DNA of 46,602 nucleotides from positions 1 through 46,602 of the forward strand of contig JAGVGK010000027.1 of NCBI GenBank assembly GCA_020057185.1. The letters run 5' to 3'. A program made the position numbers and the translations under genes. The DNA is from Minisyncoccota bacterium (GTDB lineage: Bacteria > Patescibacteriota > Minisyncoccia > Phycocordibacterales > JACOZG01). The notes beneath the pieces were generated by a model. The model did no database searches and was not told the origin of the DNA. It saw nothing but the letters and a program-made list of their open reading frames with translations. Position 1 is the first letter of the stretch, and each line of letters opens with the position of its first letter. Positions 2,676 to 39,075 of the stretch are shown piece after piece.

Positions 2676-3659
2676 ATGATAATAATGATGTCACAAGAAC
2701 AAAAAATTATTCTCTCTGGTGTGAAGCCAACCGGTCGACCGCATATCGGCAATTATTTCGGTGCGATGAAGCAATTCGTGGATTTGCAAACCGAATATCG
2801 CTCTTTCATTATGATTGCCGATCTTCATGCGTTGACGAGTGTCACGGAGGCAGAAATTCTTCGGCGCGAGACACTGGATGTGGCGATTGATTATCTCGCG
2901 ATTGGGCTTGACCCCGAGCGAGTTACTATTTTTCGACAATCCGATGTGCCGGCGCACACCGAACTTGCATGGATTTTTAATTGCCTCACGACAATGCCGT
3001 ATCTCGCGCGAGCGCACGCTTTCAAAGATGCCGAAGCGAAAAATCGCGAAGTGAATGTCGGCGTTTTCACTTACCCAATCTTGATGGCGGCGGATATCTT
3101 GCTCTATGATCCGGATTTGGTGCCGGTTGGTCAAGATCAGAAACAGCATGTTGAGATTGCGCGCGACACCGCCGAGAAATTCAACCGCCTTTTTGGTGAA
3201 GTTTTTAAATTACCCGAGGCCTTGATTCTTGACCAAGTGAAAACGCTGATTGGCCTCGATGGCCAGAAGATGTCGAAGAGTTATCGCAACACCATTCCAC
3301 TTTTTGCTGATGAACGCGAATTGAAACAACTAATTATGAGTATTAAAACTGATTCGAAGAGCGAGACTGAAGCGAAGAATCCGGAAGAGTGCAATGTTTT
3401 CGCTTTGCATAAACTTTTCTCCGGCGCGATTATACCCGAGGTCAAACGCCGTTATGTCGAAGGCGCGATCGGTTATCGCGAGTCGAAAGAAATTCTTTTC
3501 GAACAGATGAACCACTATCTTGAACCCTTGCGAGCGAAGCGAGTGGAGATTGCGAGTCGACCAGATGAGGTGCGCGCGATTCTCGCGCAAGGCGCGGGCG
3601 ACGCCCGCGCCGTCGCCGAAGCGAAATTGGCAAAAATCCGCGAAGCGGTTGGCTTATAA
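2676..3659 (+). CDS. trpS: Tryptophan--tRNA ligase
   Basis: Class I motifs HIGNYFG and KMSKS, length ~325 aa. The start could be ATG 2685/2688, 9-12 nt after TATGAT at 2670-2675. Confidence 0.95.
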   Translation: MIIMMSQEQKIILSGVKPTGRPHIGNYFGAMKQFVDLQTEYRSFIMIADLHALTSVTEAEILRRETLDVAIDYLAIGLDPERVTIFRQSDVPAHTELAWIFNCLTTMPYLARAHAFKDAEAKNREVNVGVFTYPILMAADILLYDPDLVPVGQDQKQHVEIARDTAEKFNRLFGEVFKLPEALILDQVKTLIGLDGQKMSKSYRNTIPLFADERELKQLIMSIKTDSKSETEAKNPEECNVFALHKLFSGAIIPEVKRRYVEGAIGYRESKEILFEQMNHYLEPLRAKRVEIASRPDEVRAILAQGAGDARAVAEAKLAKIREAVGL

Positions 3660-3661
3660 TT

Positions 3662-5497
3662 ATGTCAAAAAATGAACAAATAACGGTAAATATTGTTCGC
3701 AAGAAATTAGAAGTGATCGGAATCACGACCGATAATGATTTTTTAGTTGATGAACAAGTAATTCAAAATGCCCTTATCAAAAAATTATTACCAAGTAAAA
3801 CCGAGATTGGAAGTGGCAAAGGTCGGCCAGAGTTTTTAATTTCCAAAATCGGAGACAAAGATTTTTTAATCGTTATTGAGTGTAAAGCTGATATAAAATA
3901 TCACAAGTCGCCAAACAAAGATCAACCGGCAATCTTTGCCGTAGATGGAGTTCTTCTTTATGCTTCAAAATTATCACGAGAATTTAATGTGATTGCGGTA
4001 GCGGTAAGTGGACAAACAAAAGAGGAATTAAAAATTACCACCTTCCTTTTTCCAAAAGGTTCTGGTACGCACTCAATTCTTACTGACACAAAAAAAATTC
4101 CAGTGTCTGATATTATTTCTTGGCAAGATTATATCCGCTATGCCACCTATGATGAAAATCTTGTAAACACTAGAAAAAAGGATTTAAACAGATTTTCTCG
4201 TGACTTGCATAATTATCTCCGGGATTATGCAAAAATTACTGTGGCACAAATGCCTTTACTTGTAAGCGGAATTCTCATTGCTCTAATGGAAAAGGGATTT
4301 AAGGTTGCCTATTCCAAATACATTGGGCCGGAACTTGCCCAAAAAACATTTCAAGCAATTAAAGATCAAATTAACAAGACAACGCTTGGAATAAACCAGA
4401 ACGAGAAAAAACGAGCGATTATAAACGCTTTCAGTTTTATTGAATATCATCCCGAACTGCAAAAAATCGATAAAAAGAAAAACGAATCACCTCTAGAACA
4501 TATCGTTCGCGAGATAGACTCGGAAATGAAACCTTTTACACACGACCGCTTTGATTTTGATGTAATTGGTAACTTTTACGGCGAGTTTATTCGTTATACG
4601 GGCGGAGATGCGCAAGGTCTCGGTATCGTTTTAACCCCAAAACATATTACGGAATTGTTTGTTGATTTGGCAAAACTAGACAAAAACGACAAGGTTTTAG
4701 ATACTTGCTGTGGTACCGGTGGATTTTTAATTTCTGCGATGAAAAAAATGACAGAAGGATTAAGTGAAGGTGAAAGAAAGAAAATCTTGGAGAAATCTCT
4801 CATCGGGATTGAACAAGAACCATCAATGTTTGCTCTTGCTGTTTCAAATATGATTTTGTGGGGCGACGGCAAAACTAACCTTTATCAAGGATCATGTTTT
4901 GATGAAGATATTTTCAAACAAGTAAAAAATCAAGCCAGTGTTGGTTTTATCAATCCACCGTTTTCGCAGAAAGGTGAAAATTTACACGAATGGAATTTCG
5001 TCATTACAATGCTTGACGCACTCCAGAAAAATGCGACCGGTATTGTGATTGTGCCTATGTCTTTGGCTATTGCCAAACACCCGTTCCGCGAGCGATTGCT
5101 TAAAGAGCACCGTCTTGAAGCGGTCATGAGTATGCCAAATGACCTTTTTTATCCCGTTGGCGTCGTTACGTGCACTATGGTATTTACTGCGCATGTTCCG
5201 CATGATAGCGACCCGCACCATGAAAGCTGGTTTGGCTATTGGAAAGATGACGGATTTCGAAAAGATAAGCGGGAGGGAAGAATTCCAACGGAGAGGTGGT
5301 CGGGAATTCGCAAAGAATGGCTTGATATGTTTCGTCGTAAAGAAATTGCTGAAAAAAGTGTTTGGAAGAAAGTAGAAGTGAATGATGAGTGGTGCGCTGA
5401 GGCGTATCTTGAAACTGATTATTCGGATATCTCAGAAAAAAATTTTGAGAACGAATTAAAGAGATATGCTTATTTTAAGTTGTTTAAAGATTTATGA
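3662..5497 (+). CDS. Fused PD-(D/E)xK endonuclease / gamma-class N6-adenine DNA methyltransferase (Type IIB BcgI-A-like R-M subunit)
   Basis: The N-terminus has GRPEF...DFLIVIECK (PD..ExK-like). Methyltransferase motif I is VLDTCCGTGGFL and motif IV is NPPFS. 611 aa, with a 4-bp ATGA overlap onto the downstream S-like gene. Confidence 0.8.
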   Translation: MSKNEQITVNIVRKKLEVIGITTDNDFLVDEQVIQNALIKKLLPSKTEIGSGKGRPEFLISKIGDKDFLIVIECKADIKYHKSPNKDQPAIFAVDGVLLYASKLSREFNVIAVAVSGQTKEELKITTFLFPKGSGTHSILTDTKKIPVSDIISWQDYIRYATYDENLVNTRKKDLNRFSRDLHNYLRDYAKITVAQMPLLVSGILIALMEKGFKVAYSKYIGPELAQKTFQAIKDQINKTTLGINQNEKKRAIINAFSFIEYHPELQKIDKKKNESPLEHIVREIDSEMKPFTHDRFDFDVIGNFYGEFIRYTGGDAQGLGIVLTPKHITELFVDLAKLDKNDKVLDTCCGTGGFLISAMKKMTEGLSEGERKKILEKSLIGIEQEPSMFALAVSNMILWGDGKTNLYQGSCFDEDIFKQVKNQASVGFINPPFSQKGENLHEWNFVITMLDALQKNATGIVIVPMSLAIAKHPFRERLLKEHRLEAVMSMPNDLFYPVGVVTCTMVFTAHVPHDSDPHHESWFGYWKDDGFRKDKREGRIPTERWSGIRKEWLDMFRRKEIAEKSVWKKVEVNDEWCAEAYLETDYSDISEKNFENELKRYAYFKLFKDL

Positions 5498-6429
5498 TCG
5501 TAAGTGACTTTTTTAAAGTTGAATACGGGCAAAGAATTTATCACTCAAAAAGTTTTTTGGATGATAAATTTGGAAAGACCCCGCTTATCTCTTCTGGAAA
5601 AAGTGACCATGGTTTTTATGGCATCTTTGGTATAGAACCTCTCTACAGCAATGTAATTTCAGTGGCGAACACTGGTTCAGTTGGTTGGGCATTCTATCAT
5701 AATTATGATTGTTGCATTGATGACAACTGTCTTGTATTGATCCCAAAAACAAGAATGTCTGACCAACAGATGGTTTATTTTGCAATGTTGTTAAGTAAAG
5801 ATAAATACAGATATATGTATGGACGACAAGTTACTCCTATACGAATAGAAAATATTAAATTACCGGATATTCCAAATTTTGTTATTAAAAAAGAATTTCC
5901 AAACATAAATGAAGTAAAAAAGCCAGTATCTAATAAAAAAGTTTTTTTGTCCGACCGAAAATGGAAATGGTTCCATTGCGGAAATTTATTTGACATTGAA
6001 TACGGACAAAGAGAGTACACATCAAAAGATATTTTAGATTTGCCAAATGGCAGCGTACCGCTGATAAGCTCGACGGGTGAAAATAATGGCGTGTATGGTT
6101 TTTATAGCATTCAACCAAAATATTCCCATGTTTTGAGCATCGCTCGAACTGGTTCAGTTGGCGCAACTTTCTATCATGATTATGATTGCTGTATCAGTGA
6201 CGATTGCATGGTCTTGCATCCAATTAAAGAAAATCTCGATATTTTTAATGGTTTATTTCTCTCTTTTATTTTAGGTCAAGATAAATACCGTTATAGTTAT
6301 GCACGAAAAGTGACCCCAACCCGATTGCGAGAATCAAAAATCAAACTTCCGGTTGATAAAAATGGAGATCCCGATTGGCAATTTATGAAGGATTATATAA
6401 AGTCGTTGCCGTATTCAGCGAGTTTGTAA
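5494..6429 (+). CDS. Specificity (S/TRD) subunit with two homologous target-recognition halves (BcgI-B-like)
   Basis: Internal duplication: FKVEYGQRIYHSK...TGSVGWAFYHNYDCCIDDNCLVL...KDKYRYMYGRQVTP versus FDIEYGQREYTSK...TGSVGATFYHDYDCCISDDCMVL...QDKYRYSYARKVTP. Translationally coupled to the methyltransferase-nuclease gene. Confidence 0.7.
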   Translation: MIVSDFFKVEYGQRIYHSKSFLDDKFGKTPLISSGKSDHGFYGIFGIEPLYSNVISVANTGSVGWAFYHNYDCCIDDNCLVLIPKTRMSDQQMVYFAMLLSKDKYRYMYGRQVTPIRIENIKLPDIPNFVIKKEFPNINEVKKPVSNKKVFLSDRKWKWFHCGNLFDIEYGQREYTSKDILDLPNGSVPLISSTGENNGVYGFYSIQPKYSHVLSIARTGSVGATFYHDYDCCISDDCMVLHPIKENLDIFNGLFLSFILGQDKYRYSYARKVTPTRLRESKIKLPVDKNGDPDWQFMKDYIKSLPYSASL

Positions 6430-6435
6430 TAAATT

Positions 6436-7014
6436 ATGACCCGATCGCAAAAAATTATTTTATTTACCGCCCTGGCGCTGATCATTATTCTTTATGCCCT
6501 GATGAATAGTTTGAGGCAAAATGAAAAATTGCCGACGGTTAAAAATCGAAAAGATTTTTCACCTAAAACTGAGGTTGAAATTACTAATCCAATCGCGGTT
6601 ATCCCTAAGCGTGATGGGTTTATAGATACTCAAAATTGGCCAGTTTATCGGGGTGAAGATCTAGGTTTTGAAATACGATATCCAACCGGGTGGGGGATCA
6701 AGCGACTATATTCAGTATACGCTAAAGATGAGATAGTTTTTCTCATTTTTTCTCCAGTACCGTATGATTTTTCTGCTGGCATAAGTATTTTAAACACCCC
6801 ATTTGAAAAAGTTGTTGAGTCAGAGAGTAGTAAAAATCTAATTTCAACTGAAAAGATTAACATCGGGGAGTTAGGTTCTGTTTTACAAATAACCAGAGCC
6901 AATTCTTATGACGAGGATGTTTCTTTTGTTTTTCAACACGGAAATTATACTTATGTAATGCGCTCATCATCGGATTTGGGACGAGCCATGCTTGCCACGC
7001 TTACTTTTATTTAG
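6436..7014 (+). CDS. Membrane-anchored hypothetical protein
   Basis: 192-aa ORF with one N-terminal TM helix (ILFTALALIIILYAL). No recognisable catalytic motif. Confidence 0.55.
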   Translation: MTRSQKIILFTALALIIILYALMNSLRQNEKLPTVKNRKDFSPKTEVEITNPIAVIPKRDGFIDTQNWPVYRGEDLGFEIRYPTGWGIKRLYSVYAKDEIVFLIFSPVPYDFSAGISILNTPFEKVVESESSKNLISTEKINIGELGSVLQITRANSYDEDVSFVFQHGNYTYVMRSSSDLGRAMLATLTFI

Positions 7015-33217: not shown

Positions 33218-33460
33218 ATGTATCATGTATATATCCTCAAACTGAAAGATAATTCCTATTACACTGGCAGTACTAGTGATTTGGAAAAACGTTTGTTAAA
33301 TCATAAAAATGGTCGAGTGAAATCAACAAAAAATAAACGACCTTGTCAATTGATTCATGAAGAGAGTTACAGTAATCGAAGCAAAGCTCAAACCAGAGAG
33401 TACCGAATCAAAGGTTGGAAAAGTCGCCTAGCGATTGAACGTCTTATCAAAAAAGAGTAG
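33218..33460 (+). CDS. Small GIY-YIG nuclease-superfamily protein (UPF0213-like)
   Basis: MYHVYILKLKDNSYYTGSTSDLEKRLLNHKNG carries the GIY..YTG motifs. 80 aa. Confidence 0.85.
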   Translation: MYHVYILKLKDNSYYTGSTSDLEKRLLNHKNGRVKSTKNKRPCQLIHEESYSNRSKAQTREYRIKGWKSRLAIERLIKKE

Positions 33461-33558: not shown

Positions 33559-33630
33559 GGCCTCATCGTCTAGCGGCTAGGACACAAGCTTCTCAAGCTT
33601 GGAACCGGAGTTCGATTCTCCGTGAGGTCA
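33559..33630 (+). tRNA. tRNA-Glu (anticodon CUC), CCA not encoded
   Basis: Hand-folded cloverleaf: acceptor GGCCTCA/TGAGGTC, D arm GTCT-AGCGGCTA-GGAC, anticodon arm CAAGC-TTCTCAA-GCTTG, 4-nt variable loop, T arm CGGAG-TTCGATT-CTCCG, discriminator A. Confidence 0.85.
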
Positions 33631-33648
33631 CAAATCGTAGCGAAACTA

Positions 33649-33875: not shown

Positions 33876-35075
33876 ATGGCAAACAAAAATCTTACAAACG
33901 CGAAACGGGTAAAGAACGACGAATTTTATACCCAGTTCGACGATATTCAGAAAGAGATTGGAGCTTATCTGGAATACAACCCTGATGTTTTCCGTGGCAA
34001 GGTGGTGTATTGCAACTGTGACGATCCGTTTGAAAGCAACTTCTTTCGCTATTTTGTGCTCAATTTCAATAAGCTTGGATTGAAACAGCTTATCACCACC
34101 AGCTACAAACCCTCGCCCGTAGCCAACACGCAACTGGCTTTGTTTGGTGATGACAAAACTCTCACAAAATCTAAAAGCCTGCCTGCCGGTAGGCAGGGTC
34201 GTCCGAAGGTAAATGCCAACAAATTTATTATAAACGAAGTGCACGACATAGACGGCGACGGCGAGTTCAACTTGAAAGATGTTGCCAAGCAGTTAAAGAC
34301 AAACAAACACAACGAATGGACGCCGCTAGAGAGCGACGGCGATTTCCGTAGTGATGAGTGTGTAAAACTACTTAAACAATCCGACATCGTGATAACAAAT
34401 CCGCCGTTTAGCTTGTTTCGTGAGTATCTAAAACAACTCATGGATTATAAAAAGAAATTTCTGATTATCGGCAACATGAATGCTATTGCTTACAAAGAAA
34501 TATTTCCATTACTTAAAGAGAATAAAGTTTGGTTAGGTAATAATTGTAAAGTCAATGCAGGCGCAATGTTTTTTGAGATACCCGAAAAAATTGCCAATTT
34601 GGAACAAGTCCGTGAAATAAAAACAAATGAAAGTGGTAAGAAAATATATATCACCAGAGTGCAAGGAGTTCGCTGGTTCACCAACCTCGACCATGGGCGC
34701 CGTCATCAACCGATACCACTTATGTCCAAAGCAGAGGTTATAAAGTTTGTAACAAAAAAACCATTTGATCAATATTACAATTATGATGCGATAGAAGTTT
34801 CATTGGTAAAAAATATTCCAAGCGATTGTAAGGGTGTAATGGGTGTGCCGATTAGTTTTCTTGATAAATATAGTCCTGAACAATTTGAGATTATTGGTTT
34901 AGGAATAGCAAATTTGGGTCTATCAGTAGGAGTTAAGCCGTATAAGCCAGAGCATAAAAAATTTCGGAAAGAAATACAAAAAAGAGGAACGGTTAATGGT
35001 GATTTATATATGATAAAAAACGGAATTGTTGAAGTCCCGTATGCGAGAGTTTTAATTAGACATAAGAAAAAATAA
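33876..35075 (+). CDS. M.EcoRI-family N6-adenine DNA methyltransferase
   Basis: N-terminal KNDEFYTQ...KVVYCNCDDPFESNFF and catalytic NPPFSLF motifs. 399 aa, AT-rich. Confidence 0.85.
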   Translation: MANKNLTNAKRVKNDEFYTQFDDIQKEIGAYLEYNPDVFRGKVVYCNCDDPFESNFFRYFVLNFNKLGLKQLITTSYKPSPVANTQLALFGDDKTLTKSKSLPAGRQGRPKVNANKFIINEVHDIDGDGEFNLKDVAKQLKTNKHNEWTPLESDGDFRSDECVKLLKQSDIVITNPPFSLFREYLKQLMDYKKKFLIIGNMNAIAYKEIFPLLKENKVWLGNNCKVNAGAMFFEIPEKIANLEQVREIKTNESGKKIYITRVQGVRWFTNLDHGRRHQPIPLMSKAEVIKFVTKKPFDQYYNYDAIEVSLVKNIPSDCKGVMGVPISFLDKYSPEQFEIIGLGIANLGLSVGVKPYKPEHKKFRKEIQKRGTVNGDLYMIKNGIVEVPYARVLIRHKKK

Positions 35076-35076
35076 T

Positions 35077-36096
35077 ATGACAATTAAAAATAATTCCGGC
35101 GAGATGATTATCTATGAAGGCGCGGATGGGGCGCCTAGTATTGAGGTGCGTGTTGAGGGTGAGACGGTATGGCTTTCGCAAGCGAAGTTGGCGGAGCTTT
35201 TTGGTGTTACTCCGCAAAACATAACGATTCATCTAAAAAACATCTTTACGGAAAGAGAGTTGGATGAAGTCCGAACTTGTAAGGAATCTTTACAAGTTCA
35301 AAAAGAAGGAAATCGCAATGTTAACCGCACGGTTAAAATTTACAATCTCGATGTCGTGATATCGCTTGGGTATCGTATAAGCTCGGATATTGCCACTCGC
35401 TTTCGTCAGTGGGCTACTGCGCGACTTCGTGAATATATTGTTAAGGGTTTTGTGATGGACGATAAGCGACTCAAGGAAACTGGCGGGGGCAATTATTGGA
35501 AAGAACTTTTGTCTCGCATCCGTGATATTCGATCTAGTGAAAAGATGTTGTATCGGCAAGTTTTAGATCTCTATGCCACAAGCGCGGATTATGATCCAAA
35601 ATCTCTACACTCAATTAAGTTTTTCAAAATTGTGCAAAACAAATTGCACTATGCTGTCCATAAAGAAACAGCGGCGGAAGTTATTTACAATCGCTCTGAT
35701 AGTAATAAAGAATTTATGGGTTTGACGGTTTTTGAGGGAGATTTACCTGTGTTGGAAGAAGTGAGAATTGCTAAAAATTATTTGTCCGCGCGAGAGTTGG
35801 AAAAATTAAACAGACTGGTCTCGGCATATTTTGAATTGGCGGAATTGCGCGCTATGGATAAGAAAATGATGCATATGACAGAACATATTGCGTCATTAGA
35901 TAAATTACTTTCTGGTTATGGCGAAGGAGTTTTGATTGATGCGGGGAAAGTAACACATAAAAAAGCTATGGAAAAAGCTGAAGCGGAGTATAAAAAATTT
36001 CAAGCCAAAACACTTTCTCCCGTTGAAAAAGCATATTTGGAAAACATTAAATTGTTGGAGAAAAAGGTGGAGAAAAAATTAAAAAATAAAAATTAA
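35077..36096 (+). CDS. RhuM-family protein, paralog 1
   Basis: WLSQAKLAELFGVTPQNITIHLKNIF...ISLGYRISSDIATRFRQWAT is the RhuM signature. 1-nt gap after the methyltransferase gene. Confidence 0.85.
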   Translation: MTIKNNSGEMIIYEGADGAPSIEVRVEGETVWLSQAKLAELFGVTPQNITIHLKNIFTERELDEVRTCKESLQVQKEGNRNVNRTVKIYNLDVVISLGYRISSDIATRFRQWATARLREYIVKGFVMDDKRLKETGGGNYWKELLSRIRDIRSSEKMLYRQVLDLYATSADYDPKSLHSIKFFKIVQNKLHYAVHKETAAEVIYNRSDSNKEFMGLTVFEGDLPVLEEVRIAKNYLSARELEKLNRLVSAYFELAELRAMDKKMMHMTEHIASLDKLLSGYGEGVLIDAGKVTHKKAMEKAEAEYKKFQAKTLSPVEKAYLENIKLLEKKVEKKLKNKN

Positions 36097-36112
36097 TAAA
36101 AATTTTAATATT

Positions 36113-36160
36113 ATGAAAACAACTTTAAAAACCAACATCACTGTGAAAGATATTTGCGAG
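36113..36160 (+). pseudogene. Orphan duplicate of the first 48 nt of the DUF262-HNH gene (17-codon stub)
   Basis: 48/48 identical to 37226-37273. Reads [16 protein letters not shown] then R-stop. Confidence 0.85.
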
Positions 36161-36171
36161 AGATAAAAAAT

Positions 36172-37224
36172 ATGAAGAAAAAAGATAAAAATAGTATGAA
36201 AAAGAAATTGCCTGACAATCAAATTGCGTTTTATCAAACACCGGATGGCTCGGTGAATATTGAGGTTTTGTTTGCCGAAGAAAATATTTGGCTTACGCAA
36301 AAAAAAATGGCGGAGCTTTTTGGCTGTTCTGCTGATAACATTTCACTTCATTTAAAAAATATTTATAAAGATGGCGAAATTGACCAAAAATCAACTAACG
36401 AGGAATTCTCGGTAGTTCAAAACGAAGGCGGACGGAATATTGAAAGAAAAATTATGATGTATTCTTTGGAGGCCATTATCGCTGTCGGCTATCGCGTGAG
36501 TTCCGAGCGAGGCGCGCAGTTCCGCCAGTGGGCGACTAAAATTTTGAAAAACTATATTCATAAGGGCTATGCCTTGGATGTTAATCGTATGAAATACGGA
36601 TCCCGTTTTAGCGCCAGATATTTTGATGAGCTTTATGAAGAAATAAAAGATATTCGCACGAGCGAGCGGAGAATTTATCAAAAAATTACCGATATCTACG
36701 CGACGGCGATTGATTATTCGCCTAAAGCGGATGAGAGTAAAGAATTTTTTGCCACCGTGCAAAACAAACTGCATTTTGCCATCACTGGAAAAACGGCGGC
36801 GGAAATTATCACAGAGCGGGTTAGTGGTAAAAAAGAAAAAATGGGATTGACTTCATGGCGGCGATCTCCGCAAGGCAAAATTATGTCAAGCGACACGGTG
36901 ATCGCTAAAAATTATTTAGACAAAAAAGAACTGGAACATTTGAATCGCATAGGCAATATGTATTTGGATTATGCCGAAATGCAAGCGGCGCGTGGCAAAG
37001 CGATGACAATGCAGGACTGGATTGTAAAGCTCAACGCGTTTTTGAAATTCAGCGAATATGAAATTTTAACCAACGCCGGAAAAGTGAGCCATGAGGTCGC
37101 CGAGGCGCTGGCGCTTAAAGAATACGAAAAATATCGCGTCATTCAGGATAAAAATTATATTTCTGATTTTGATCGGGAAGTCAAGCAATTAAAAAACAGG
37201 GTAATAAAAAATGTAAAAAAATAA
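36172..37224 (+). CDS. RhuM-family protein, paralog 2
   Basis: [26 protein letters not shown]...[20 protein letters not shown]. Roughly 45% identical to paralog 1 by eye. ATG 36172 chosen over the track's TTG 36154. Confidence 0.85.
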
Positions 37225-37225
37225 T

Positions 37226-38392
37226 ATGAAAACAACTTTAAAAACCAACATCACTGTGAAAGATATTTGCGAGGGGTTCGTCTATAACGAACTTGAAGGA
37301 AAGGGTTTGTTTGGTTTGTCTGGCAAGCTGACTATCCAACCAGAGTATCAACGCAATTATATTTATGCGTCTGACGGCGGTAAAAGAGAGATTGCCGTTA
37401 TTGAATCACTACTCAAAGATTACCCAATAGGATTGATCTATTTTAATAAAGTTTCTGAAAACAAATTAGAAGTTTTAGACGGGCAACAGCGTATCACCAG
37501 TGTTGGACGTTTTGTGACTGACAAATTTGCCATCAAAGATGAAAATGGGATGCAATATTTTGGCACTATGGCAGAAGACAAGAGAGTCAAGATATTGGAA
37601 ACAAAACTGCTAATTTATGAATGTGAAGGGACAGAAAGCCAAATAAAAGAGTGGTTCAAGACAATTAACATAGCTGGAGTTCCGCTCGTTCCCCAAGAAT
37701 TGTTAAATGCGATCTATTCTGGACCATTCGTTACGCTAGGTAAAGAAGAGTTCAGCAACAGTCAAAATGCCAATATCCAAAAATGGAGCGCGTACATAAA
37801 AGGCAGTGCAAACCGACAGGCATTTTTTGAGAGAGCTTTAGACTGGGTGAGTAAAGGGAATATTGATGATTACATGAGTATTCATCGTAACGACAAAAAT
37901 ATCAATGAGTTAAAAAAATATTTCAACGGTGTGATTGACTGGGTTTCTAGTATATTTACTGAAGTTGAAAGCGAGATGAGCGGACTTGAGTGGGGACGAC
38001 TGTATGAAAAGTATAATACGAAGGCGTATAATTCAGCGAAGATATCAGCCGAAGCACAAAAGCTTTACGCTGATCCTTATATAAAAAATCGCAAAGGTAT
38101 TTTTGAATATATTCTCGGTGGTGCCACTGACACAAAATTGCTTGAAGTCCGAATTTTTGATGAAGCAACCAAGAAAGCGGTTTACACAACACAAACCGCT
38201 ACGGCTGAAAAGAAAGAGAAATCAAACTGCCCGCATTGCGCCATTGGTCATGACGCTAACAAGAGTAAAATTTGGAGTTTTAATGAAATGGATGCCGACC
38301 ACGTAGCCGCTTGGAGTAAGGGCGGTGCAACTTCGGCAAAAAATTGCCAGATGTTGTGCAAGACACATAATCGAGCAAAAGGTAATCGGTAA
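37226..38392 (+). CDS. DUF262 (ParB-like NTPase/nuclease) domain protein with a C-terminal HNH endonuclease motif
   Basis: [10 protein letters not shown] and LDGQQRITS (DUF262 motifs). C-terminus CPHC...[12 protein letters not shown]...[15 protein letters not shown] (HNH). Confidence 0.85.
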
Positions 38393-38493: not shown

Positions 38494-38564
38494 ATAGGAG
38501 GATAGCAAGTCCTGAAATTGCGTAATTTTAGGCAAACCTTGAAATAGTGTAGGGAGGATTGGCG

Positions 38565-39041
38565 ATGAAAAGTTCGAGAGCCGAAAGAGCCGCTGGTCAA
38601 TTAGAGGAGAGGGAACGCGCGGTTGAATTTTGGCGGAAGCATATCGAGCATCTGATAAGCAAAAGATTAGTGGAAGATCTCGCCCTGCAAGCTCTCGTCG
38701 ATCTTGGTGTTACTAAAATAAAAAACATTGGCTGGCAAGGAGGGAAAATTCGGCCGGGCAAGCCAGGTCAATGGGATGTCTTCCGTGCTCTTGCGGGGAA
38801 ATTCAGCCAAGTTGAATGCTTAATTCTCTCCGATCTTTCGGTCATTGATTTGGCCATCGCCACGCGACGGGTTCGTTTGTTGAAAACAGGGGTTGACCCA
38901 AATAATTCCACTGAAGTTGCAGAATTTGATCGTATCCAGCGGATGTCGTCTAGCGAAGTTGAACGCTTGACTGAAACTTATTTTGATCTTGAGCTTGAGC
39001 GTCTCGAGGCTAGTCTCGCTGACTGTGATCCAAGTCGTTGA
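38565..39041 (+). CDS. Hypothetical 158-aa protein
   Basis: GGGAGG SD 7 nt upstream of ATG 38565. Terminator downstream. No recognisable motif. Confidence 0.55.
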   Translation: MKSSRAERAAGQLEERERAVEFWRKHIEHLISKRLVEDLALQALVDLGVTKIKNIGWQGGKIRPGKPGQWDVFRALAGKFSQVECLILSDLSVIDLAIATRRVRLLKTGVDPNNSTEVAEFDRIQRMSSSEVERLTETYFDLELERLEASLADCDPSR

Positions 39042-39048
39042 ATTACAG

Positions 39049-39075
39049 GAGACCCATCGCGGGTCTCTTTTTTTT
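39049..39075 (+). terminator. Intrinsic terminator
   Basis: GAGACCC-atcgc-GGGTCTC followed by T8. Abuts the murF stop on the other strand. Confidence 0.75.

Follow-up and report, generated by a model that had tools for sequence, protein, structure and literature searches.

A conserved methyltransferase–nuclease gene pair with a cargo slot at its junction, occupied by two RhuM genes in a Minisyncoccota bacterium

In a 46,602-nucleotide stretch of a Minisyncoccota bacterium genome (GenBank assembly GCA_020057185.1, contig JAGVGK010000027.1; hereafter the window, meaning the whole stretch of DNA that was analysed), four co-directional genes follow a tRNA-Glu gene: an EcoRI-family N6-adenine DNA methyltransferase (M), two RhuM-family genes (rhuM1 and rhuM2) and a predicted nuclease (R) in which a DUF262 domain is joined to a zinc-HNH domain (Table 1). 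An earlier note, drawn from the sequence alone, had described this block as a candidate restriction–modification (R-M) or defence system, and its description of the layout was borne out throughout: the tRNA gene and the four genes lie where it had placed them in a block of low GC content (~0.34-0.40 over 34-38.5 kb versus ~0.44-0.49 in the flanks), the Pfam profiles PF13651, PF13310 (twice), PF03235 and PF01844 all matched, and the M.EcoRI-family signature and the DUF262 and HNH motifs are all intact, including the CxxC...DH...N...HN pattern of a zinc-HNH domain. The genes are tightly packed, with gaps of 1 nt at 35075/35077 (M/rhuM1) and 37224/37226 (rhuM2/R) and 57 nt between the rhuM genes when counted to the start given by the open reading frame (ORF) finder, and no terminator-like site was found on the plus strand within the four-gene block.

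Table 1. The four-gene block, its internal landmarks and the neighbouring tRNA gene, in nucleotide positions of the window.
Feature	Position	Strand	Evidence and remarks
tRNA-Glu (CTC)	33559-33631	+	ARAGORN; sole tRNA of the window; upstream neighbour of the block
M, EcoRI-family N6-adenine DNA methyltransferase, 399 aa	33876-35075	+	PF13651 E 7e-124; PADLOC MTase_II 9e-101
M hypervariable segment A	34536-34661	+	residues 221-262, equivalent to M.EcoRI 186-221; presumed target-recognition element; window allele type 'A2'
M hypervariable C-terminal segment	34896-35072	+	residues 341-399; maps to M.EcoRI 296-326; ends in conserved tail ...R(I/V)(L/F)I(K/R)HKKK*
Junction copy 1	35061-35079	+	CATAAGAAAAAATAA-T-ATG: M stop, 1 nt, first cargo start; the same sequence joins M to R in empty loci
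rhuM1, RhuM-family, 339 aa, cargo cassette 1	35077-36096	+	PF13310 1.6e-101; PADLOC candidate PDC-S05 3e-138
Duplicated junction and R 5' remnant	36107-36166	+	remnant ORF 36113-36166; scar of rhuM2 insertion
rhuM2, RhuM-family, cargo cassette 2	36172-37224 (ORF-finder start TTG 36154)	+	PF13310 2.8e-102; PDC-S05 1.7e-142
Junction copy 2	37213-37228	+	AAAAAATAA-T-ATG: cargo stop, 1 nt, R start; repeat D10
R, DUF262 + zinc-HNH nuclease (predicted), 388 aa	37226-38392	+	PF03235 2e-20, PF01844 4e-6, PADLOC REase_II 4e-78

Comparison with other genomes singled out M and R as the conserved part of this block. A close relative of R was present in at least 563 species-representative genomes, from which 80 loci were sampled, and an EcoRI-family M stood immediately upstream of R in 74 of the 83 loci examined; seven of the remaining nine end at a contig edge and two (L011 and L039) are without an intact M. 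Where M lies upstream it abuts R in 41 of the 74 loci, mostly with a gap of 1 nt. Such pairs, free of any insert, were found on optrA megaplasmids of Enterococcus faecium, small Pediococcus and Moraxella plasmids and actinobacterial plasmids, as well as in Flavobacterium phage laban6-1, in Moraxella chromosomes and on 17 of 18 IMG/VR contigs. A search with the distant R relative P0169 returned Moraxella loci only, all of them again M-R, while the contigs of two further distant relatives (P0138 and P0232) are shorter than 2 kb, so that their context is uninformative; at one locus (L093) the ORF upstream of a distant R relative is not an EcoRI-type methyltransferase. Natural fusions of M to R also occur, as two distinct 688-aa proteins encoded on independent contigs. 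The placement of M directly 5' of R in Patescibacteria, Firmicutes, Actinobacteria, Moraxella and a phage, together with these fusions, shows M and R to be a coupled pair of predicted modification enzyme and nuclease, as the earlier note had supposed. We conclude that the M-R unit is ancient and widespread, reaching across many Patescibacteria lineages and, in other phyla, found on chromosomes as well as on plasmids and phages.

RhuM, which the earlier note had counted as a component of the system, did not hold that place. In the 33 loci in which M does not abut R, inserts of 0.6-3 kb sit exactly at the stop/start junction between the two genes, and their contents belong to more than 20 unrelated families. 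RhuM is the commonest occupant of this slot (12 of the 33 occupied loci, including the window), followed by T5orf172 (PDC-S57; seven loci) and Fic (SoFic, 1e-104; three loci); DUF2130, an Old-type ATPase-TOPRIM protein, HEPN_AbiU2, Bro-N (PDC-S13), AntA, PIN_8 and a protein with a weak PD-(D/E)xK match were also seen, as were about ten families without a match in Pfam or PADLOC. The three independent genomes that first showed the order EcoRI-methylase, X, R carried DUF2130 or the Old-type ATPase-TOPRIM protein as X, not RhuM. Because 41 of the 74 loci are cargo-free and one and the same slot holds so many unrelated families, the ancestral unit is taken to be M-R, and the three-component reading of the earlier note is not supported. 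It is very probable that the locus consists of an M-R core to which RhuM has been added as facultative cargo.

The junction motif is kept on either side of the cargo. In empty loci a single nucleotide separates the end of M, …CAT AAG AAA AAA TAA, from the ATG of R (MKT·LKTN…), whereas in occupied loci the M tail is kept and the ATG after it now starts the first cargo ORF. The boundary between cargo and R again reads …AAAAAATAA-T-ATG in most loci, although the cargo genes are unrelated, and one Fic ORF ends in the exact tail of M. That the stop-N-start motif has been kept points to selection for translational coupling, and in the Patescibacteria clade the M/R junction (…HKKK*-N-ATG) serves as a docking site for other known or putative defence genes. 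Right after the M stop, one short conserved leader, ATGAAAATTGAACTGCACCTAGTTTACATCTC… (MKIELHLVYISLA…), is common to three loci whose cargo is Fic or RhuM (L017, L020 and L084). In L020 and L021 further RhuM-family genes flank the unit, 5' of M and 3' of R, so that RhuM accumulates around units beyond the junction slot; in L004, too, a RhuM gene lies just outside the M-R unit.

The window retains traces of how its own two cassettes were acquired. A 54-nt direct repeat (36107-36160 versus 37220-37273, 98% identity) comprises the junction and the first 16 codons of R. RhuM cassettes in L007 and L020 are likewise preceded by this 16-codon remnant, and L008 has a degraded form of it at the same place. 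Since the listed TTG start of rhuM2 sits inside the duplicated 5' remnant of R, the ATG at 36172 is the likelier start. The two RhuM proteins each cover ~250 of the 252 PF13310 profile positions and are only 43% identical to each other by BLASTP, and the 3' flank of rhuM1 is of the same type as the RhuM/R junctions of L020, L021 and L081. From the duplication, the shared rhuM1/R type of junction and the divergence of the two copies the succession of insertions can be read: an M-R pair first gained the rhuM1 cassette at its junction (M-rhuM1-R), and rhuM2 was later inserted after codon 16 of R, with duplication of the 54 nt, to give M-rhuM1-[R remnant]-rhuM2-R. The view of the earlier note that rhuM2 was added later to M-rhuM1-R is thereby upheld, while its ancestral unit of methyltransferase, RhuM and DUF262/HNH gives way to M-R.

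RhuM genes embedded in Type I R-M operons have been noted in a published comparative analysis as presumed toxins (PMC3710099), and neither a solved structure nor a characterised homologue of RhuM was found. We regard the two RhuM proteins as facultative, self-contained cargo, most likely independent toxin or abortive-infection modules, which would profit from being co-expressed with the R-M operon and from the stabilising effect of the R-M unit, and which may serve as a second layer of defence or as a guard. By analogy with PrrC, a guard role is possible; rhuM1 and rhuM2 do sit inside an R-M operon, the location of guard modules of that kind.

M itself is a composite of a conserved core and two exchangeable parts. 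It is 47% identical to canonical M.EcoRI over their alignment and carries the catalytic motif of S-adenosylmethionine-dependent methyltransferases, NPPF, at residues 175-178 (NPPFSLF at 175-181). In gamma-class methyltransferases the target-recognition region lies C-terminal to NPPF, and it is there that the divergence of M is concentrated, in residues 221-262 and 341-399. The remaining core, with a median identity of 0.81, is conserved to the same degree as R. Among 64 loci, segment A falls into at least 11 discrete, unrelated types and the C-terminal segment into at least 23, in free combination; identity is 0.89 within a type, which is above that of the M core, and 0.17 between types. The types are common to Patescibacteria (Candidate Phyla Radiation, CPR), M.EcoRI of Escherichia coli, Enterococcus, Moraxella and the Flavobacterium phage, on different cores: the segment type of the CPR locus L002 is that of canonical M.EcoRI and of an E. 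faecium plasmid, that of the CPR locus L010 is shared with Moraxella, and the C-terminal module of the CPR loci L010 and L042 is that of the Flavobacterium phage M. The hypervariable segments of M thus behave like exchangeable modules, presumed to be those of target recognition.

As opposed to M, R is nearly uniform. It consists of a DUF262 domain (ParB/Srx-like NTPase fold; residues ~36-164) with the motifs QPEYQRNY and DGQQR (the latter at residues 85-89), a helical middle and a zinc-HNH domain (residues ~335-388; PF01844/PF14279) with a CxxC...CxxxC zinc site; Pfam gave no match to DUF1524. The invariant residues include Q42, R43, D85, G86, R89, C335 and H359, and C338 and D358 are nearly so (>=90%). 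An AlphaFold2 model, built from an alignment of 94 diverse sequences, showed an N-terminal α/β domain, a helical middle and a C-terminal ββα HNH fold (predicted local distance difference test score 93, predicted template-modelling (TM) score 0.80). Foldseek searches with this model ranked BrxU, a member of the GmrSD family, at the top, together with N-terminal domains of ParB CTPases and the HNH nucleases Gme and McrA, all as weak, domain-level matches; since none is better than the E 8e-3 (TM 0.23) of BrxU, R is without a close solved relative. A sequence search of the PDB likewise gave no match for R, RhuM1 or M, and NCBIfam gave none for five window proteins. Relatives of R at 87-92% identity account for more than 8000 cluster representatives, nearly all from Patescibacteria, and the wider family forms 429 clusters at 50% identity (E≤1e-30), mostly of full length (~380 aa). 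In a survey of the ParB fold published in 2025, fusions of ParB to HNH appear only as novel and without an assigned function (PMC12704722). A nucleoside triphosphate (NTP)-driven HNH restriction module, as the predicted domains would have it, is plausible.

The contrast between the two proteins was quantified over 2016 pairs from the 64 loci. Synonymous sites are saturated in both genes (proportion of synonymous differences, pS, 0.72), whereas the proportion of nonsynonymous differences (pN) is 0.093 for R versus 0.201 for M, and median amino-acid identity is 0.84 versus 0.69. Purifying selection, as read from these substitution patterns, is much stronger on R than on M. A recent horizontal sweep was rejected as the cause of R conservation, given the saturated synonymous sites and an R GC content that tracks that of the host (rho 0.71); the same two observations mark the M-R family as old and resident. 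A selection artefact was rejected as well, for R remained the better conserved partner when loci were selected on M and in viral contigs. In a plasmid search with M the best identity was 49%, and ~40% to true EcoRI plasmids, while R in the same records reached 59-68%. R does not follow the type of M with which it is paired. Unrelated M segments are found beside R proteins that are 96% identical to each other; within M types R identity is 0.849, and between them 0.843; and the best R column reaches an adjusted mutual information with M type of 0.134, against 0.114±0.029 in the permutation null and up to 0.95 for control columns of the M core. These comparisons show a modular M alongside a constant R.

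Intact R accompanied by a damaged or absent M was seen in three loci: L039 (M remnant), L011 (no M on the contig) and L095 (split M). For a self-sufficient Type II endonuclease decay would be expected to run the other way, and the three loci, together with the M-R fusions, are suggestively consistent with a dependence of R on M.

Some loci have further peculiarities. In L039 (3184-8167) an M cut down to 110 aa and an intact R enclose three slot genes, which encode, in this order, an unannotated protein of 470 aa, a D12-class (Dam-like) N6-adenine methyltransferase and RhuM; they may represent a second R-M pair carried as nested cargo. In L011, from a Saganbacteria bin, RhuM and the intact R (3405-5623) lie within a menaquinone biosynthesis cluster of the futalosine type, and no methyltransferase was found on the 9.3-kb contig. 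In L095, on the Moraxella macacae chromosome (2795-3987), M is split into two ORFs of 189 and 208 aa near the catalytic motif, for which a frameshift, phase variation or a sequencing error may be responsible. In a Kuenenbacteria locus (L004-L006) a 64-aa protein with a helix-turn-helix domain (HTH_3/HTH_19; 4908-5102) lies directly 5' of M and resembles the controller (C) protein of Type II systems; no equivalent is present in the window.

Taken together, we favour, with a probability of roughly 0.6, a reading that sees in the locus a two-gene R-M unit as core and RhuM as facultative cargo, and in which specificity would reside in M alone and R would depend on M. M would set the sequence specificity through its two exchangeable hypervariable segments. 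Because R stays constant while M swaps recognition-like modules, R is taken to carry no matching specificity of its own and so probably depends on M; it would be recruited or licensed by M, or read the marks that M deposits. The logic would be that of Type III Mod/Res or of Type I systems, with a ParB-type NTP switch replacing the helicase motor. That R relies on M for targeting or activation, whether through a complex or by sensing of marks, has in our view about even odds on the sequence patterns described, and the narrower version in which M directly recruits or licenses a constant, NTP-gated HNH nuclease, which would make this an unrecognised class of R-M system, is put forward tentatively.

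Several points weigh against this reading. The sampled loci were chosen by similarity to the R of the window; the loci with orphan R come from metagenome bins, in which M could be encoded elsewhere; and the label of target recognition for the M segments rests on gamma-class domain order and allele-like behaviour, not on structure. The co-variation test, with 64 sequences, would miss subtle specificity determinants in R; the target could not be inferred from palindrome avoidance over 967 kb of host loci; profiles derived from REBASE file R as an ordinary Type II enzyme; and no paper or experimental description of the M-R pair was found in the literature.

The most conventional alternative is a classical Type II system with cargo, in which R recognises the site of M independently and is blocked by its methylation, RhuM being a passenger. 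It would account for the MTase_II and full-length REase_II matches in PADLOC, for the strict adjacency of M and R and for their carriage on small plasmids and phages, as is typical of such modules, and a mild under-representation of GAATTC in the host loci (observed/expected, O/E, 0.80; z -3.5) points the same way. This avoidance is weak, however, ranking 10th of 64 (CAATTG, O/E 0.85, is also only weakly avoided), and AATT is not avoided (O/E 0.97). It is, moreover, difficult to reconcile many unrelated M alleles with an R that is ~84% identical and does not co-vary with them, and neither an NTPase-type domain in R nor intact R beside a broken or absent M, nor M-R fusions, would be expected; we therefore hold a classical Type II system to be unlikely. 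A different view makes R a sensor of modification, either Type IV-like and directed against foreign modified DNA or, like SspE, in need of an N6-methyladenine (m6A) licence from the host, in which case it would nick invader DNA; M would then supply marks and no protein-guided targeting. All characterised DUF262 nucleases (GmrSD, BrxU and SspE) do read modification (PMC4619093, PMC12707154, PMC12065111), BrxU is the top structural match of R, and a context-independent m6A reader would explain both the constancy of R beside a variable M and the tolerance of R without M. The likeness to BrxU is weak, though, and the nuclease of R is a zinc-HNH domain rather than DUF1524; a pure Type IV enzyme offers no rationale for strict coupling or fusion to a methyltransferase, and a nuclease that cuts m6A DNA beside an m6A methylase would be suicidal. 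A sensor of this kind is accordingly given little weight.

Two further alternatives concern the block as a whole. An obligate three-component machine, in which RhuM would serve M and the DUF262-HNH protein as a sensor or accessory subunit, would be in keeping with the prevalence of RhuM at the junction and its presence just outside the unit in L020, L021 and L004, with RhuM beside R in the absence of M in L011, and with the tight 1-nt junctions of the window. It is nevertheless highly improbable in light of the loci without RhuM, which include the 41 of 74 with abutting genes, every inspected example from plasmids, phage and Moraxella, and 17 of the 18 viral loci, of a slot open to more than 20 unrelated families, of RhuM being equally known from Type I operons (PMC3710099), and of the 43% identity of the two copies, which marks them as separate arrivals. 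Delivery of the whole block by a site-specific recombinase, as an integrative island targeted to tRNA-Glu, would explain why the block begins 245 nt 3' of that gene with a GC content 6-10 points below its flanks. No integrase or recombinase ORF was found between 31 and 42 kb of the window, though, and no att-like direct repeat of the 3' end of tRNA-Glu was found around the block; with neither bounding it, a tRNA-integrated island is not demonstrated. M-R units elsewhere occupy many contexts that do not involve tRNA genes, and the GC content of R, which tracks that of the host, speaks for long residence, so that we consider such an island scarcely credible. A search for relatives of murF, aimed at an empty tRNA-Glu/murF site, yielded no close relative in the genome collection.

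Returning to the two-gene unit with M-borne specificity, its place among known systems deserves comment. The M-R pair is not unnamed, contrary to the earlier note, which had matched it to no named system, because the REBASE-derived Type II profiles of PADLOC capture it: M matches MTase_II (9e-101), and R matches REase_II (PDLC03418, E 4e-78) end to end, residues 7-387 covering positions 6-371 of 372. Akin to EcoRI, the unit pairs a methyltransferase of the same family with a nuclease in a two-gene operon found on plasmids and phages; unlike EcoRI, the partner is a ParB/DUF262-HNH protein instead of the PD-(D/E)xK enzyme R.EcoRI, the gene order is M then R and not R then M, and R, much the better conserved of the two proteins, shows no co-variation with the variable, recognition-like segments of M. 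Type III and Type I systems likewise combine a conserved nuclease/NTPase with a methyltransferase that has many exchangeable recognition alleles (here at least 11 by at least 23, with R at 84% identity), and, in keeping with their logic, R appears to be tolerated without its methylase, the dependence of R on M being suggested here by sequence patterns; R differs from their nucleases in having neither a superfamily 2 helicase motor nor a PD-(D/E)xK domain, and the unit is without a separate S subunit.

The N-terminal DUF262 domain with DGQQR is shared with GmrSD, BrxU and SspE, of which BrxU is structurally the closest. R is much shorter than these enzymes (388 aa), ends in the PF01844 zinc-HNH domain where they have DUF1524, and is linked or fused to an m6A methyltransferase (M upstream in 74 of 83 loci) where they stand alone. 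The DUF262 part also matches the NsnA profile of Menshen (NsnABC; E 1.7e-24), a partial match far below that to REase_II, but the genes for NsnB, an ATPase, and NsnC are absent from the block. The cargo recalls the defence genes carried inside Type I operons, such as PrrC in EcoprrI, and the RhuM, Fic/DOC and HEPN genes of R-M loci (Anantharaman et al. 2013), both in its repertoire of RhuM, Fic, HEPN and ABC-ATPase/Old-type proteins and in the idea of several layers of defence within one R-M operon. It departs from them in its host operon, which is a two-gene M-R unit, and in the use of one precise stop/start junction whose motif is duplicated, in some loci along with the initial 16 R codons.

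The surroundings of the block are of housekeeping character, with rmuC and a small GIY-YIG ORF upstream and murF and a penicillin-binding protein gene downstream. The stand-alone GIY-YIG ORF (33218-33460, 80 aa; PF01541 E 8e-16) lies just 5' of tRNA-Glu. Between R and the convergent murF lies a 160-aa ORF (38559-39041) of host-like GC content, without a Pfam match and with only insignificant PADLOC matches (Cas12 models, E about 0.006), which is followed by a strong bidirectional terminator at ~39047-39075. A second low-GC patch (3662-7014; GC 0.35-0.40) contains a Type I-like N6_Mtase of 611 aa (3662-5497), a Methylase_S specificity protein of 311 aa (5494-6429) and an unannotated 192-aa ORF (6436-7014), with no HsdR-like gene in its immediate vicinity. 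Over the 46.6 kb, ACGT is strongly under-represented (19 observed versus 82 expected under a Markov model) and GGCC is low (97 versus 170), a sign that restriction systems other than the EcoRI-family unit, and unrelated to it, may be exerting pressure.

The operon of the window is one example of a catalogued R-M pair with cargo of known type; what appears to be new is the junction hotspot with its large repertoire of cargo, the pattern of a constant R and a modular M, and the scale of the family in Patescibacteria. To our knowledge these bacteria are largely without CRISPR and are thought to depend on R-M. Hundreds of their species carry the M-R unit, as do plasmids and phages of cultured bacteria, with no experimental account of it found. 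Its junction is a precisely defined and easily searched hotspot, and because those occupants that are known (SoFic, Old, RhuM/PDC-S05, PDC-S13 and PDC-S57) are defence genes, validated or candidate, the approximately ten unannotated slot families are strong defence candidates. RhuM, whose function has long been unassigned, is now found in R-M operons of a further type, unrelated to the first, and a role for it alongside restriction gains in weight. The constancy of R beside swapped parts of M suggests, on the strength of sequence comparison, an undescribed way of aiming restriction; if restriction is indeed directed by M, the unit would represent a new R-M architecture, with a ParB-type NTP switch and an HNH nuclease in place of a helicase motor and a PD-(D/E)xK nuclease, and the ParB–HNH fusions would gain a function.

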